From the IMG/VR virus record IMGVR_UViG_2802429240_000007: a stretch of DNA of 37,713 nt; one strand, 5' to 3'. This DNA is from a virus (taxonomy: Duplodnaviria; Heunggongvirae; Uroviricota; Caudoviricetes). The notes under the pieces were generated by a model. It was not told the origin of the DNA. It did no database searches and saw only the letters and a program-made list of their open reading frames with translations. The translations under genes and the position numbers were made by a program. The first letter of the stretch is position 1. Each line of letters opens with the position of its first letter. Below are positions 1 through 6,243 of this stretch, one piece after another.

Positions 1-987
1 ATGTCTTCTGTTTCTACATCGGGGTCTGGCGCGCCTAAGTCGTCATTCAGCCTCGGCCGTATCTGGGATCAGTACGGTATGCTGGTGGTGTTTGCGGTGC
101 TGTTTATCGCCTGTGCCATTTTTGTACCGAACTTTGCCACCTTCATTAATATGAAAGGTCTCGGGCTGGCAATCTCCATGTCGGGAATGGTGGCTTGCGG
201 CATGTTGTTCTGCCTCGCTTCGGGGGACTTTGACCTTTCCGTCGCTTCGGTAATTGCCTGCGCAGGTGTCACGACGGCGGTGGTTATCAATCTGACCGAA
301 AGCCTGTGGATTGGCGTGGCGGCAGGCTTGCTGCTGGGCGTCCTCTGTGGTCTGGTGAATGGTTTTGTTATCGCCAAACTAAAAATCAACGCCTTGATTA
401 CGACGCTGGCGACGATGCAGATTGTTCGTGGTCTGGCGTACATCATTTCTGATGGTAAAGCGGTCGGTATCGAAGATGAAAGTTTCTTTGCTCTTGGTTA
501 TGCCAACTGGTTCGGCCTGCCTGCGCCAATCTGGCTTACGGTGGCTTGTCTGATTGTCTTCGGTTTGCTGCTGAACAAAACCACCTTTGGGCGCAACACG
601 CTGGCGATTGGTGGTAATGAAGAGGCGGCGCGTCTGGCTGGTGTACCCGTTGTCCGCACCAAAATCATTATCTTTGTTCTCTCTGGTCTGGTATCGGCAA
701 TTGCCGGGATTGTTCTGGCTTCACGTATGACCAGCGGTCAGCCGATGACTTCGATAGGCTATGAGTTGATTGTTATCTCCGCCTGCGTTTTAGGCGGCGT
801 TTCTCTGAAAGGTGGCATCGGAAAAATCTCATATGTAGTGGCGGGTATCTTAATTTTAGGCACTGTAGAAAACGCCATGAACCTGCTCAATATTTCTCCG
901 TTTGCGCAGTACGTTGTCCGTGGCTTAATCCTGCTGGCGGCGGTGATCTTCGACCGTTATAAGCAAAAAGCGAAACGCACTGTCTGA
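1..987 (+). CDS. araH: L-arabinose ABC transporter permease (host gene)
   Basis: 328-aa polytopic membrane protein; translation recognised from memory as E. coli AraH; ATG start at window position 1, stop at 987. Confidence 0.9.
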   Translation: MSSVSTSGSGAPKSSFSLGRIWDQYGMLVVFAVLFIACAIFVPNFATFINMKGLGLAISMSGMVACGMLFCLASGDFDLSVASVIACAGVTTAVVINLTESLWIGVAAGLLLGVLCGLVNGFVIAKLKINALITTLATMQIVRGLAYIISDGKAVGIEDESFFALGYANWFGLPAPIWLTVACLIVFGLLLNKTTFGRNTLAIGGNEEAARLAGVPVVRTKIIIFVLSGLVSAIAGIVLASRMTSGQPMTSIGYELIVISACVLGGVSLKGGIGKISYVVAGILILGTVENAMNLLNISPFAQYVVRGLILLAAVIFDRYKQKAKRTV

Positions 988-1026
988 TGTTTTTTTCAGC
1001 ATAAATTTAGTTCGACTTTCCTCCAC

Positions 1027-1060
1027 AGCCAACCGCCACAAAGGTTGGCTGTTCTTTTTT
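1027..1060 (+). terminator. Rho-independent terminator downstream of araH
   Basis: Stem AGCCAACC (1027-1034), loop GCCACAAA, stem GGTTGGCT (1043-1050), followed by GTTCTTTTTT. Confidence 0.6.
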
Positions 1061-1149
1061 GCAAATGTGTAACTTCGCGTTTTTTTCTGGACTGATTGAC
1101 GCGCAATTCTGGATGGTTCAGGTGCGCCCAAAAAGTCCAGAATTGACCG

Positions 1150-1728
1150 CTAATTACTGCTGGTCGCCATCGCTCGGATTGAGCGTAAATCATCCAGGTT
1201 GCTCAACCTCTCTTTCATCTCCCGCTGACGTTGATAAATCTCGTCGTTGCGATCGACCTGCGCCTGCGCCATTGCTGCTGCCAGTTCTTCCAGTTCCGGC
1301 ATCGACAGTTTCACCTGTTGATTATCGGCGTCACCCCACGCCATAACGTCCCGCGCCGTGTCAGATTTCGCAGCCATTACCACAGGATAAAGACGGGCCA
1401 TTGAGTCGGGGCCAGCATTCCAGGTACGACCGTTCCATTCGAACGTGAACGGCAGTGCTTCCTGTTCTGTTCGCCACGCCTCGATTTCCCGCTTTTTGGC
1501 ATCTTTTGCCGCTGCGATAAGTTCAGGCGTGACTGTAAACGGGGCGATTTCACCCCATTTGCCGCTCTGTAACTCTTCCCAGATGCGCTGGCCTGTCGGC
1601 GCAGTATCATCCTGCATGGCGGTATACGGGACGAATTCCGTTTCACCTTCAAATAGCACCTCGCAATCAACCGCGCCATTTTCGAGATAATGCGCGTTTC
1701 TGATGCCTTTTACCGCTCTGATTTTCAT
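1150..1728 (-). CDS. Tail fibre assembly protein (Tfa-like chaperone)
   Basis: 192 aa immediately downstream of the large fibre gene; Tfa-like architecture; last phage gene before the host junction. Confidence 0.7.
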   Translation of the reverse strand: MKIRAVKGIRNAHYLENGAVDCEVLFEGETEFVPYTAMQDDTAPTGQRIWEELQSGKWGEIAPFTVTPELIAAAKDAKKREIEAWRTEQEALPFTFEWNGRTWNAGPDSMARLYPVVMAAKSDTARDVMAWGDADNQQVKLSMPELEELAAAMAQAQVDRNDEIYQRQREMKERLSNLDDLRSIRAMATSSN

Positions 1729-1742
1729 GTTTTATTTCCTCG

Positions 1743-4700
1743 TTACTCGATGCGCACAAACAGGCAGATACGACCGCTTGTTCCGTAAGAGTCCCTGACC
1801 CCGGATAACGCCATATAACGCCCCGGAAAAGTGTACCCTGTAGCTCCTGCACTCGGTGTGGAACCGTAGGAGCCAGCCCCCGCAGAAGATATTGTGCACG
1901 AAAGATTAACTCCGCCCAGTTGTGACCCTGGCACCACATCACCCAGGCCAATTTTGATTTCTTTATCCCCGGAAGTTGTTCCGCGATAAACAGCAAGCAC
2001 CGGAACACCAACTGCCGGGTATTTGAAATATGAGCCTGAGCCTGCCGTTCGGGACAGCAGGAACGCCAGCGAATCGCCGTCGTAAATGATGGGGCTTACT
2101 GTTGCATTCCAGTTGTTTCCACTCCAGCGGTAAGTCAGGCGATGAATGCTGTGCTCACCTTCGTAATACTGGTTAAAACACAGCAGCATTTTGAATTTAC
2201 GCGTTGTGTCCGATTCATCGTTATCAAAGGGCGACCACATCACATCAATGATGCCGTTAAATTTTGTGGTGCCTGCCAGTAGTGTGGAAGAGTCCGCAAT
2301 ACTGACCGCATAACGCCCCGGGGTGGCCTCTTTCAGCCATTCAGCAAAATCGGCCTGTCCGTCAAACGCCAGAGCGTCGGTGCTGGCAAATGCCTGACCG
2401 AATCCGTACATGCCGGACAGTGCCAGCCTGCCCGGTGTGCGGTCGCGGATATCGCTCTGGGGCTCCATCGTCGCAGCCGTTTTCAGACCAAGATATTCCA
2501 GCACCTCATTTTTAGAATTCTGACCAATTAACACCCGACCGACCGCAGTCAGATTTGCCAGCGCCATGACGTTTTTATCACTGAAATAAGGCAACTTATT
2601 ACCGGCAGTAACCAGTCCTGATAATGACGTCAGTATTTCATTAAGCGGCTGTTTACCTGCCAGGGCGTTAGTGACCGTTGTTGCAAAGTTCGGGTCATTA
2701 CCCAGCGCCGCTGCCAGCTCGTTCAGTGTGTCCAGTGTTTCCGGGGACGAGTCAACCAGCGCGGCGAGCAGTTTGCGGACAAAAGCCGCATTGGCTATCT
2801 CAGTGCCTGCTGCGTCATCCGGCGGGGTTGGTGCTGTCGGAGTTCCGGTCAGTGCCGGACTTTTCAGTGGTGCGCGGGCTTCAATCAGTGCCCTGAGTGA
2901 AGCCTCATCAACCTTCAGGTTTTCCCAGCCAACCAGATAACCACCACCTGATGCCACCGCGCAACGGTTATAATAAATATGACCATTAACACCATAATAA
3001 ATAATTATCTTATAGGCATACTCATCATTCGGGCTGGTTTTAGGTTGTGGCCAGATAATTTCAATAACACCGTTTGTCTGTATGCCAGGTACCACCACAT
3101 TTGTGTCCGCAAATACGGTATAACGACCGGGTTTTGCTGTTTTTACCCACCTGAGAAAATCAGTCCCTGATTTAAATTCAGTTCTGTCGCTACTGGAAAA
3201 TATTTTCCCGAAACCGAACATGCCGGGAATCGCCAGACGACCTTCGGTGCGGTCGTAAATATTCTCCTGCGCATCCTTCTGTGCTGCATTGCCAAGTTGT
3301 GGCGTCAGATTCGTCCAGGTGACCGGGGCGGAGATATTATCGCCACGAACGGTCATAAGAATCCGTCCGTCTTTTCCAAAAAACAGAACCAGCTTTGTTG
3401 CTGTCTGGCTGGTTTTGTCGCCCCAGTTGTTATCCAGCCAGATAATTTCTGTTATTCCGGTTGTTTCTTCCGTTTGTGTGGAAAAGGTGTAATACCGTCC
3501 CGGGTGCAGGTTGTGCGCAGTTCTGGCTACAGTCGCCATATCGCTGGCAATGATTGAACGCGCTCCGGCGTCCGTCATTCCGTAACCAAATGCACCAGGC
3601 AGCGCAACGCGGCCTTCCGAGCTGTCGTAAAGGTCTGTCTGAATGTCCCTTACCGCTGCGCTTTTCAGCTCAAGCTCATTGCGCATGGTTTCCACTGTGG
3701 CCTGTGCCAGCAGTGACCGGGCTTTTTCTGACAGCGGAGACAGTGAAGCATTCCCGTCCTGATTAAAGCACAGAAGCTTATCCGCCCGTTCTTCCAGATT
3801 ACTGATTGCGGTTAACACGTCACTGAGTGGTTGTTTACCCGCCAGCGCGTTCATGATTGTTGTCGCAAACTCCGGGTCATTGCCCAGCGCCGCTGCCAGC
3901 TCGTTCAGCGTGTCAAGGGCTTCCGGCGACGAATCAACCAGTGCGGCAAGCAATTTGCGGACAAATGCCGCGTTCGCGGTTTCCAGACCGACTGCATCGT
4001 CCGGTGGGGTTGGTGTGGTTGGCGTGCCGGTGAACGCCGGGCTGTCCAGTGGCGCTTTTGTTTTCGTCTCGTCCATGACGGTTTTGACGGCTTTTGGCGT
4101 GGCTGCCAGTTCTTCGCTGTCGTTGTCTGTATCACTACAGAGTTGCACCAGGCCTTTTTCTGTCGTGGAAGCATTGCCTCCCTTCAGGTCATCAACTATC
4201 CGTTGCGCGTCGTCCCTGTGCTGTTTCGCATTCTGCTCGCTTTTTGCTGCCGCTTCGGCGCTGGCTTTTGCCTCGCCGGTCAGCGTTGCGGCTTCACCGA
4301 GTTTATCAACAGCCTTATCGACAATTTTGTCTGCGTCCTTAACGGCCTGCTCTGCGCGGGCCGCATCCTGCGAAGCTGATGATGCCAGTAACGCCACCTG
4401 CTTTTTGTCTTCGGCAACGGCCTCTGCATTCTGCTGTACGTTATTCGCCAGCGTCTGACAGTCATCCTTAATCTTCTGCGCATCAGTAACGTGCTGTTCT
4501 GCCAGCCGCTCGCTTTCCGCTGCCGCTTCCGCGCTCTGCTGCGCCTGCGCCACCATTTCCTCGAAGCGTTTCACCACGTCGGGTTTGAGGTCGCCTTCAT
4601 CGGGGGCGGTCAGAAAATCATTCAGTGTGCCGGGCTTTGAATCGTCGTAAATCGAAATGTCACCCACACAGCACTTGGGGCCGTTCTTTTGCTTGATGTG

Positions 4701-4880
4701 TACGGTGTATTTGCCTTTTTGCGCTTCAAAGGCATACTGTCCCGCCGCATCGGTTTCAATAACCGCGAATGATTCAGTGACCACTTCACTGGTATTAACC
4801 AGTGCATCTAAATAAATTTTGCATTCCGCCATCGGAACGCCAGCGCCATTAATAAGCGCCCCTGAGATCAATACAGACAT
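1743..4880 (-). CDS. Side tail fibre protein, mosaic, 1045 aa
   Basis: N-terminus (ISGALINGAG...GDISIYDDSKPGTLNDFL) resembles the lambdoid Stf N-terminal domain; Ala/Glu/Lys-rich coiled region; two copies of a ~75-aa collar segment (SPAFTGTPTTPTPPDD... and SPALTGTPTAPTPPDD...); three paralogous C-terminal-type modules; GAGG RBS before the ATG at 4880. Confidence 0.8.
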   Translation of the reverse strand: MSVLISGALINGAGVPMAECKIYLDALVNTSEVVTESFAVIETDAAGQYAFEAQKGKYTVHIKQKNGPKCCVGDISIYDDSKPGTLNDFLTAPDEGDLKPDVVKRFEEMVAQAQQSAEAAAESERLAEQHVTDAQKIKDDCQTLANNVQQNAEAVAEDKKQVALLASSASQDAARAEQAVKDADKIVDKAVDKLGEAATLTGEAKASAEAAAKSEQNAKQHRDDAQRIVDDLKGGNASTTEKGLVQLCSDTDNDSEELAATPKAVKTVMDETKTKAPLDSPAFTGTPTTPTPPDDAVGLETANAAFVRKLLAALVDSSPEALDTLNELAAALGNDPEFATTIMNALAGKQPLSDVLTAISNLEERADKLLCFNQDGNASLSPLSEKARSLLAQATVETMRNELELKSAAVRDIQTDLYDSSEGRVALPGAFGYGMTDAGARSIIASDMATVARTAHNLHPGRYYTFSTQTEETTGITEIIWLDNNWGDKTSQTATKLVLFFGKDGRILMTVRGDNISAPVTWTNLTPQLGNAAQKDAQENIYDRTEGRLAIPGMFGFGKIFSSSDRTEFKSGTDFLRWVKTAKPGRYTVFADTNVVVPGIQTNGVIEIIWPQPKTSPNDEYAYKIIIYYGVNGHIYYNRCAVASGGGYLVGWENLKVDEASLRALIEARAPLKSPALTGTPTAPTPPDDAAGTEIANAAFVRKLLAALVDSSPETLDTLNELAAALGNDPNFATTVTNALAGKQPLNEILTSLSGLVTAGNKLPYFSDKNVMALANLTAVGRVLIGQNSKNEVLEYLGLKTAATMEPQSDIRDRTPGRLALSGMYGFGQAFASTDALAFDGQADFAEWLKEATPGRYAVSIADSSTLLAGTTKFNGIIDVMWSPFDNDESDTTRKFKMLLCFNQYYEGEHSIHRLTYRWSGNNWNATVSPIIYDGDSLAFLLSRTAGSGSYFKYPAVGVPVLAVYRGTTSGDKEIKIGLGDVVPGSQLGGVNLSCTISSAGAGSYGSTPSAGATGYTFPGRYMALSGVRDSYGTSGRICLFVRIE

Positions 4881-4897
4881 AAAACCTCTGAACTGAA

Positions 4898-4921
4898 AAC
4901 GGTCGCCAGAAAGCGACCGTT
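4898..4921 (-). other. Stem-loop between tfa stop and side tail fibre RBS; possible attenuator/terminator
   Basis: AACGGTCGC / GCGACCGTT 9-bp stem with 6-nt loop; on the minus strand it is followed by TTTTCAGTT. Confidence 0.3.
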
Positions 4922-4927
4922 ATTGTT

Positions 4928-5362
4928 TTACACGTCAGGTTTTTCCGGCCACTGAATTAAATCAAAGGAAGATTTATCACTGACCTGACTTAAATCCAGC
5001 GCCTTTACCTCCCTGATATACATCATCCACTGTGTCAGGCGTCCCTTGTCTGCATCGCTGATGGTGCCCAGCTCCAGCTCGATTTTCCAGTCGGAGGTGA
5101 TTTCCCTTGCTTCAGCCAGCAGGTGCTGGCGTTGCGTTTCCGCTTTCTGCTGCCAGTTAATTACGGGTTCTTTTAATACCGGATATCCGTTTTCGCCGGA
5201 TACAATAATAAAACCGTCAGTCTGACCCTGTAACAGTCTCTGATATTCTTCATCCGTGATTTTCTGTAAATCACCAGGCCACGTTCCCGCATTTTCATAA
5301 TCATTCTGAAGGTCAGAATGATAAAAACCGTTTGTTGATGGGCTGAAATAAATAGTCATCAT
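4928..5362 (-). CDS. Tail fibre assembly protein (Mu U-like chaperone)
   Basis: 144 aa; start overlaps the stop of the upstream fibre gene (ATGA at 5362); position matches Mu U. Confidence 0.65.
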   Translation of the reverse strand: MMTIYFSPSTNGFYHSDLQNDYENAGTWPGDLQKITDEEYQRLLQGQTDGFIIVSGENGYPVLKEPVINWQQKAETQRQHLLAEAREITSDWKIELELGTISDADKGRLTQWMMYIREVKALDLSQVSDKSSFDLIQWPEKPDV

Positions 5363-6243
5363 TAATACCCTATCGCTGTCCAGTACATAACGCCGTTATT
5401 CTCGCTGTTGAATGTCGCACCTGCTGCTGATAATGATTTCAGGGAAATAGAGTAATCAGCACGGGTATATGCGTTGGTAATAGTGATGCTGGTACATGCT
5501 GACGGAAATGATATCGGAAACGTCAGCCCGGCACCGGCATTGCCGAGATACCCCCACTGAATAATCACCCCGGTGGACGTGTCCTTAAACCAGCCATTAC
5601 CGGCTTTTGACGCCGTGTTTTTTTGCTGGTAACGGTTGTCACCTTCAGTTTGTGACATTCCCGCAGAAATCGTGATATCGCCGGAGCCGTCAAAGAGCAC
5701 ATTGTTAATCCTGCGGGCCGTCTGAAGGCGGGTTGCCGTTCCGGCGTTGCCGCTGATGCTGTTGATGGTGATATCCGAAGTCAGGGCCATGCCGTTGACC
5801 TTACGCGCTTTCGGCACACCGCTGATGTTATCCAGAAACAATTGTTTATTCGGGATATCTGCGCCGTTACGGTCTTTTGCCAGTCTGGCATTTGCGTTAT
5901 CCATCGCAATTTTTACCGCTTTGGGCGTGGCTGCTTCTGTTTCTGATTCACTGTTAACAGCACTGTTAAGCTGCACTACGCCTTTTTGCGTCAGCGATGC
6001 ATCCGGGACTTTCTGGCCAATAAACGAGGTCAGCGCCTCAACCAGCTGGTTTTGTTTTTTCGGATCCGGGGTTACGCCAGCCTCTTTAAGGACGTTAATC
6101 ACCTCCTGCTGCAAATCGCGCGTTGCTTCCTGATGATTATTCATATATTCAGCGGTAACAATGGTTCCCTCTATCCCCTGAGTCGGGTCACCATCATGAA
6201 ATAACTTGTCCGGTGTATTAACCGGAGTCATTAAATTCTGCAT
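5362..6243 (-). CDS. Tail fibre protein (short, Mu S-position)
   Basis: 293 aa; contains the ATPKAVK fibre motif also present in the large fibre; Gly/Ser/Thr-rich C-terminus; coupled start/stop with both neighbours. Confidence 0.6.
   Translation of the reverse strand: MQNLMTPVNTPDKLFHDGDPTQGIEGTIVTAEYMNNHQEATRDLQQEVINVLKEAGVTPDPKKQNQLVEALTSFIGQKVPDASLTQKGVVQLNSAVNSESETEAATPKAVKIAMDNANARLAKDRNGADIPNKQLFLDNISGVPKARKVNGMALTSDITINSISGNAGTATRLQTARRINNVLFDGSGDITISAGMSQTEGDNRYQQKNTASKAGNGWFKDTSTGVIIQWGYLGNAGAGLTFPISFPSACTSITITNAYTRADYSISLKSLSAAGATFNSENNGVMYWTAIGY

Follow-up and report, generated by a model that had tools for sequence, protein, structure and literature searches.

The window analysed here, a 37,713-nucleotide (nt) stretch of virus DNA recorded as IMGVR_UViG_2802429240_000007, carries a Mu-like transposable prophage that encodes a large second tail fibre beside its Mu S-like one. 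The gene for this second fibre (1743..4880, minus strand) is an intact open reading frame (ORF) with an ATG start and no internal stops. Its 1045-amino-acid (aa) product has the layout N-C-M-M-C-M-T: a side tail fibre (Stf)-type N-terminus, a collar, two knob modules (M1 and M2), a second collar, a third knob module (M3) and a tip. The mosaic is genuine, the protein looks functional, and it illustrates well the familiar process of tail-fibre mosaicism. We give a probability of roughly 0.6 to the reading that it is an accessory fibre in which the last knob and the tip, matured or capped by the DUF4376 protein encoded next to it, bind the receptor, and in which M1 and M2, once distal knobs, have been retained as part of the shaft. 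The fibre is not a novel type of system, and databases already contain close homologues with generic names. We found no account of this fibre type in the literature, where phage Rac-SA53, which carries a relative, is mentioned only in an unrelated context. An earlier sequence-only reading of the window, made by a model without database searches, gave the ORF the same coordinates and length; the strand is minus. The domains of the protein, from the N-terminus, are as follows.

4596..4880, minus strand: immunoglobulin (Ig)-like Stf N-terminal (StfN) anchor, aa 1–95, from matches to PF08400 and PDB 9E7M.
4176..4595, minus strand: proximal shaft, aa 96–235, from composition.
4050..4169, minus strand: one copy of the Phage_fiber_2 repeat, aa 238–277 (PF03406, E 2.6e-15).
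3678..4058, minus strand: collar copy A (APLDSPAFTGTPT...LDTLNELAAALGNDPEFATT...AGKQP...), aa 275–401, from self-blastp against copy B and a hidden Markov model match.
3288..3671, minus strand: knob M1, aa 404–531, of the GYGMT...IIWLDN.W.DKTSQTATK subtype, from self-comparison and a profile match.
2877..3287, minus strand: knob M2, aa 532–668, ending in GWENLK and a helical linker (VDEASLRALIEAR) that runs into collar B.
2496..2876, minus strand: collar copy B, aa 669–795, from repeat comparison and a match to PDB 9D93, 'tail collar fibers gp4' (E 1.6e-11).
2076..2489, minus strand: knob M3, the penultimate domain, aa 798–935, from self-comparison and a profile match.
1746..2075, minus strand: C-terminal tip (head), aa 936–1045, with the pattern ...VGxPxLAxYxG...RG...GS.L...PGxYxALSG...LFxRxE/A.
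1150..1728, minus strand: DUF4376 protein, 192 aa, encoded by the next gene (PF14301, E 1.5e-16, 61 bits against a cut-off of 25; phrog_1141, E 1e-88).

The repeats were recovered by comparing overlapping chunks of the protein with the whole protein by blastp, a whole-protein self-search returning the identity hit only, and alignment scores were expressed as standard deviations above the mean of 300 shuffles. M1, M2 and M3 are 29–38% identical in pairwise comparison (E 1e-14 to 1e-22, shuffle z 16–33.5). The two collars match each other with E 1e-45 over 154 aa and share an 85-aa core that is 78% identical (z 53.6). Because the scores lie 16–54 standard deviations above the shuffles and a module-versus-collar control gives z = -0.6, the repeats reflect real homology and not composition or low complexity. 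The sequence-only reading was thus right in seeing three paralogous modules and two collar copies, although its sizes need correction: the modules span ~125–140 aa rather than ~150, and the collars ~127 aa each rather than ~75. Its two module signatures hold in part. GRxAxPGxxGxG is present in M1 and M2 whereas M3 has S in place of P, and within the proposed GRYxVF motif all three modules share PGRY but the residues vary (GRYYTF, GRYTVF and GRYAVS).

The same reading had described the modules as C-terminal-type, with several candidate receptor-binding modules stacked in one fibre. It did not describe the distinct ~110-aa tip, which is present once in the protein and is conserved as the terminal ~100 aa behind the last module in 65 relatives. 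Since simpler relatives have one module and then a tip, the tip occurs once here and the DUF4376 gene comes next, the modules are penultimate or internal knobs and not terminal domains. A profile built from 16 module sequences and run against 1.84 billion cluster representatives found 107 proteins at E <= 1e-3, and layouts were counted in the 81 representatives in which a module spans 60% or more of the profile. One module is present in 64 of these, two in 15 and three in 2, with P0070 a truncated third case of three. The most frequent layouts are N-M-T (19), M-T (17) and N-C-M-T (8). The simple complete members (P0040, P0049, P0051, P0059 and P0061; 463–477 aa) consist of StfN, a shaft, one module and a ~105-aa tip, whose motifs are VGGLIxAAYxG, RG..SGS.L, PGxYxALSG and GLFxRxA. 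The same module also lies internally in other fibres ahead of quite different tips (P0105, P0110 and P0113), with P0113 ending in a lambda Stf-type His-rich end and P0105 in an S74-type intramolecular chaperone end, and it is found behind P2 H-type (PF12571) N-termini as well. The M1 subtype is always directly followed by another module. As worded, the claim of several receptor-binding modules is therefore not supported, since modules precede the tip or sit internally in other fibres.

The DUF4376 gene is the final gene of the prophage, lies directly downstream of the fibre gene and follows the fibre in five related loci. DUF4376 proteins have been shown experimentally to be tail-fibre chaperones in the Alteromonas phages V22 and A5, in which the fibres are built as a stem, knob(s) and a head, with knob duplication, and are R-pyocin-like (PMC10579305, PMC7289586). 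By analogy, the DUF4376 protein in the window is presumed to be the cognate fibre chaperone. The knob-plus-head plan can likewise be likened to the V22/A5 and R-pyocin fibres, as a resemblance and not as family membership.

AlphaFold2 (AF2) monomer models were made of aa 795–1045 (mean predicted local distance difference test score, pLDDT, 68.5) and aa 396–672 (mean pLDDT 58.9). In these models the conserved ~35-aa motif of each module, AA..D.Q.DIYDRTEGRLALPGxFGFG, has low confidence, which would fit a role as an inter-chain shaft in a trimer. The motif is followed by a compact strand-helix-five-strand (alpha/beta) knob with pLDDT 70–85 (~80 in M2 and 70–85 in M3), and for the tip the prediction is an all-beta fold (pLDDT ~80). 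Searches of the module profile against PDB and Pfam, and of the whole protein against NCBIfam, gave no match, and the tip profile likewise had no significant match in PDB or Pfam. No lectin or adhesin fold was detected in the fold and profile searches. One relative, P0083, reads the tip in the frame of a 114-aa overlapping ORF (window 1667–2011, minus strand), giving ...VMWCRGHNWAELIFRAQYLL...; we put this down to a frameshift, real or introduced by sequencing error, in the copy carried by another genome.

The N-terminus is of the lambda Stf type rather than the Mu S type, in agreement with the sequence-only reading. The Pfam family PF08400 ('Prophage tail fibre N-terminal') matches aa 1–133 (E 1.6e-47, 161 bits against a cut-off of 26.6), aa 1–92 align with the solved N-terminal collar domain of Ur-lambda Stf (PDB 9E7M, E 2.2e-15), and the Mu S homologue is a separate 293-aa ORF upstream. 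Matches to Mu S itself (PDB 5YVQ/8JU3) are confined to aa 225–280, the region of the Phage_fiber_2 repeat. The proximal shaft (A 22%, D 11%, K 10%, Q 10% and E 9%, with 1 Pro and 5 Gly per 140 residues) is probably a trimeric coiled coil, by analogy with the equivalent region of lambda Stf, which has been described as a coiled coil (PMC12617516). In Ur-lambda a ring of twelve StfN domains lies at the gpV/gpM junction (PMC12617516). The virion encoded in the window is a Mu-like myovirus and not a siphovirus, so that this attachment site would be covered by the sheath. The N-terminal domain of the XM1 neck fibre gp40 matches aa 2–193 (E 1.2e-5), and in the Vibrio myophage XM1 six trimeric 'collar spikes' are fixed to the neck by this distantly similar domain (PMC10457771). 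The XM1 example shows that a myovirus can bear an anchor of this kind, at the neck.

The fibre has been assembled from parts that occur elsewhere. M2 shares 84–90% identity with the one module present in the 404-aa fibres P0020–P0023, and M3 together with the tip shares 96% with P0052. The three modules are thus far closer to the modules of other fibres (84–96%) than to one another (29–38%), and the serial module capture suggested by the sequence-only reading explains them better than local duplication. The same N-C-M-M-C-M-T layout stands behind a different StfN in the Rac-site prophage of E. coli 52F4 and in phage Rac-SA53. Between the window and 52F4, aa identity is 50–69% over aa 1–70, 82–99% over aa 87–750, 47–83% over aa 753–950 and 91–98% in the tip and chaperone, with M3 (73% aa identity) reported as the most diverged segment. 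The synonymous divergence (dS) between the two varies ~tenfold between neighbouring segments. Second fibres of E. coli Mu-like prophages carry a near-identical StfN on very different distal parts: 567 aa with one module and a tip, 608 aa with no module, 759 aa with a collar, a module and a tip, and at least 846 aa with M-C-M-C-M.... The outside identity of the modules, their varied number on the same anchor and the patchy identity and dS relative to 52F4 together argue for accretion and exchange by recombination. The module-to-collar junction GWENLKV.E..L..LI..[RK]APL.SP recurs across many multi-module fibres, so the chaining of module, collar and module has been inherited as a design and did not arise as one isolated accident. 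The ratio of nonsynonymous to synonymous divergence (dN/dS) is 0.09–0.32 in every segment (M1 0.19–0.32, M2 0.11–0.13), showing that the whole protein, M1 and M2 included, is maintained by purifying selection.

In the reading that we favour, the gene would encode a functional trimeric second tail fibre of the Mu-like myovirus, deployed beside the Mu S-like fibre. Its Stf-type Ig-like domain would anchor it to the virion and the coiled-coil shaft would project it outward, leaving collar-M1-M2-collar-M3-tip as the distal half. M3 and the ~110-aa tip form the sole unit shaped as the complete distal end of the simple relatives, which would make this unit the likeliest receptor binder and also the one likeliest to depend on the DUF4376 chaperone, encoded downstream, in order to fold or be capped. 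M1 and M2 may be ex-distal knobs of other fibres; on this view recombination placed a new collar-knob-tip cassette behind them, at the cost of their own tips, and they now persist as folded parts of the shaft and make the fibre longer.

Several points weigh against this reading. Module and tip are equally diverged among relatives (34% versus 33.5% mean identity, r = 0.48), so sequence variability does not single out the tip as the receptor binder. The strong conservation of M1 and M2 fits a binding role equally well. Tip identity and chaperone identity track each other only loosely across the five loci, a covariation too weak to use. The case for assigning receptor binding to one particular domain is also indirect throughout.

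These points bear on a rather unlikely but substantial alternative, in which the fibre is polyvalent and each knob is an independent receptor-binding site, giving several receptors per fibre and a broader host range. The close identity of M2 to the distal knob of single-knob fibres implies that the activity of that knob, whatever it is, has been kept; M1 and M2 are under purifying selection; and the modules are as diverged as the tips, as expected under host-range selection, with module and tip sometimes exchanged separately. Against it, the internal modules lack the tip found behind the module in 65 relatives, the same module is internal in fibres with unrelated, recognisable tips (P0113 and P0105), there is a single chaperone gene, and the searches detected no lectin or adhesin fold. 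A more elaborate form, to which we attach a low probability, has a Stf-anchored, possibly neck-mounted polyvalent fibre standing beside the baseplate fibre, its three knobs drawn from different donors and 3–4 ligands scanned at once. Were the fibre polyvalent, constitutive display of both fibres would replace the switching of the Mu G segment as the means to a wider host range.

Recent tandem duplication within the gene, as the source of both collars and modules, is very improbable and we reject it. The collars are direct repeats in register, 1182 nt apart, with DNA that is 79% identical over 236 nt and includes a 26-nt exact run. Set against this are the identities of the modules, lower among themselves than to those of other proteins, the dS contrast between neighbouring segments and the presence of the same layout behind a different anchor in another type of phage. 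The 26-nt run makes an in-frame deletion of M1 and M2 conceivable, and the product of such a collar-collar recombination would equal the layout present in E. coli 08-00022.

There is hardly any case for an artefact of assembly or fusion, or for a pseudogene decaying in a defective prophage: many database relatives are fragments on short contigs and P0083 has its tip in a shifted frame, but the ORF is intact on a 320-kb contig, the gene is matched over at least 80% of its length in 9 complete E. coli genomes, same-layout homologues of 1047 and 1061 aa (from a chromosome-level E. coli assembly and a phage genome) exist elsewhere, dN/dS is well below 1 and the Mu-like gene set is full. The sequence-only reading had raised the artefact as a possible objection; complete genomes and a deposited phage genome both contain full-length homologues, which removes it.

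The setting of the gene supports its place as an additional fibre. The window encodes Mu transposase C-terminal and DNA-binding domains and an AAA+ MuB-like protein, together with the Mu portal, Mu F, gp36, gp37, the sheath, gpP/gp44, gp45, gp46, Baseplate_J and gp48. Megablast of the baseplate region against the phage collection returned nothing, so that no sequenced phage isolate there shares this backbone at the DNA level. The two genes just upstream of the 1045-aa fibre are these.

5362..6243, minus strand: primary fibre, 293 aa, the Mu S equivalent (Pfam Phage_fiber_2 and Gp53-like_C; PDB 8JU3, E 3e-25).
4928..5362, minus strand: Caudo_TAP chaperone of the primary fibre, 144 aa, the Mu U equivalent (PF02413, E 2.4e-22).

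The 293-aa fibre sits after gp48; its proximal part is Mu S-like, and its foot is lectin-like and of the R-pyocin/AP22 gp53 type. Because a Mu S homologue and its Caudo_TAP chaperone are encoded just upstream, the 1045-aa protein is a second fibre and not a replacement of S. Two co-directional sets of fibre and chaperone thus lie at 1150–6243, S-like with Caudo_TAP and then Stf-like with DUF4376, and the same arrangement is found in the E. coli Mu-like prophages L004–L007. In these four the primary fibre is 267 aa with a different C-terminus, and its chaperone is 174 aa. At the fibre locus we found no gin, no mom and no suitable flanking inverted repeats, and the stretch from the chaperone gene to the prophage end at ~1067 contains no ORF. 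An invertible segment of the G type is ruled out, as there are no inverted repeats and no invertase and both sets are on the minus strand. Given the co-directional sets, the absence of these switching elements and the Stf-type N-terminus of the second fibre, both fibres are probably made together and not switched.

Homology to host DNA (araH) stops at ~1067, ~80 bp downstream of araH, and the left end of the prophage lies beyond the window. At ~1067 the prophage sequence begins TG...ACTTCGCGTTTTTTT / TG TGTAACTTCGCGTTTTTTT, which we take to resemble a Mu-type right end. Judged by sequence, the host is probably a non-coli Escherichia. Across all 5418 E. coli genomes that match araH and its downstream DNA (window 1–1067), identity is only ~90%. 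A fibre fragment that is 100% identical, P0014, is labelled Escherichia marmotae.

A search with aa 396–672 returned fibre proteins only, from Escherichia, Salmonella, Yersinia, Citrobacter and Plesiomonas. Among full-length cluster representatives P0068 alone has the N-C-M-M-C-M-T layout. The fibre had been called unusual, and it does have the most complex and rarest layout in a small family, yet that layout recurs in 9 complete E. coli genomes and in phage Rac-SA53, and on two phage backbones. StfN is near-identical in the related Mu-like prophages and ~62% identical to the Rac-type homologues. Phage pPE4, with the same gene order as Rac-SA53 and 52F4, carries a 667-aa version of the fibre. 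The phages of the Rac-SA53 type (L001, L002 and L008), described as lambdoid, have baseplate J genes and a block of fibre, Tfa, Stf-like fibre and DUF4376 genes, with an antirepressor gene cluster inserted among the baseplate genes. Fragments of the family are often annotated 'shikimate transporter' (P0001, P0004–P0006, P0008, P0012 and others), evidently a propagated mis-annotation; most of these are short pieces at contig ends, because the repeats break draft assemblies.

Tail-fibre rebuilding is seen with unusual clarity at this locus. Within one prophage lineage the same anchor bears 0, 1 or at least 3 knobs, and two phage backbones that are unrelated share the same three-knob distal cassette. 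Natural splice points lie at the conserved collar and at the GWENLK-linker junction, which is useful for the engineering of chimeric fibres, of which lambda Stf chimeras are an example (PMC11338833). The findings are of use for annotation as well: Pfam and NCBIfam have no model for the knob or the tip, and gene fragments of the family are widely mislabelled as transporters. The fibre also raises the question of where a lambda Stf-type anchor attaches on a sheathed Mu-like tail. General understanding of how fibres work stays unchanged.

Among known systems, lambda Stf and the lambdoid Stf proteins (StfR and others) share with the window fibre the N-terminal anchor, the Ala-rich proximal shaft, the Phage_fiber_2 repeat and the collar segment. 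They differ at the distal end, which here is not a gp37-like His-rich needle but a member of the knob-and-tip family, and in which nothing beyond aa ~800 matches the C-terminus of lambda Stf; in the downstream chaperone, DUF4376 here rather than Tfa (Caudo_TAP); and in the backbone, lambda being a siphovirus whereas the window encodes a Mu-like myovirus with sheath and baseplate genes. Rac-SA53 tail3 (ALP46863.1) and the 52F4 fibre (WP_473257994.1) have in common with it the full N-C-M-M-C-M-T layout, a DUF4376 gene after the fibre and a first fibre with its chaperone before it; the window fibre is 71% identical to Rac-SA53 at the aa level and 91% identical to 52F4 at the nt level from nt 206 onward. 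The differences lie in StfN (~62% aa identity), in the backbone, which is a Rac-site prophage with baseplate J, and, for Rac-SA53, in the third module and the tip (43% and 36% aa identity). With the V22/A5 fibres of Alteromonas phages, which we compare together with the R-type pyocin fibres (PDB 6CL6), the window shares the V22/A5-type trait of a DUF4376 gene immediately downstream. XM1 gp40, the collar spike (PDB 7KJK), is alike in having a StfN-like Ig domain followed by a helical shaft, although the similarity is distant and the distal part unrelated. Mu itself, with S/U and S'/U', likewise has two fibre/chaperone sets at the right end of the genome after gp48. In Mu these lie in an invertible G segment with Gin, whereas the sets in the window are co-directional and without gin, mom or flanking inverted repeats; and the N-terminus of Mu S is S-type, while the second fibre of the window is Stf-type and does not directly follow gp48, the place taken by the 293-aa S homologue.

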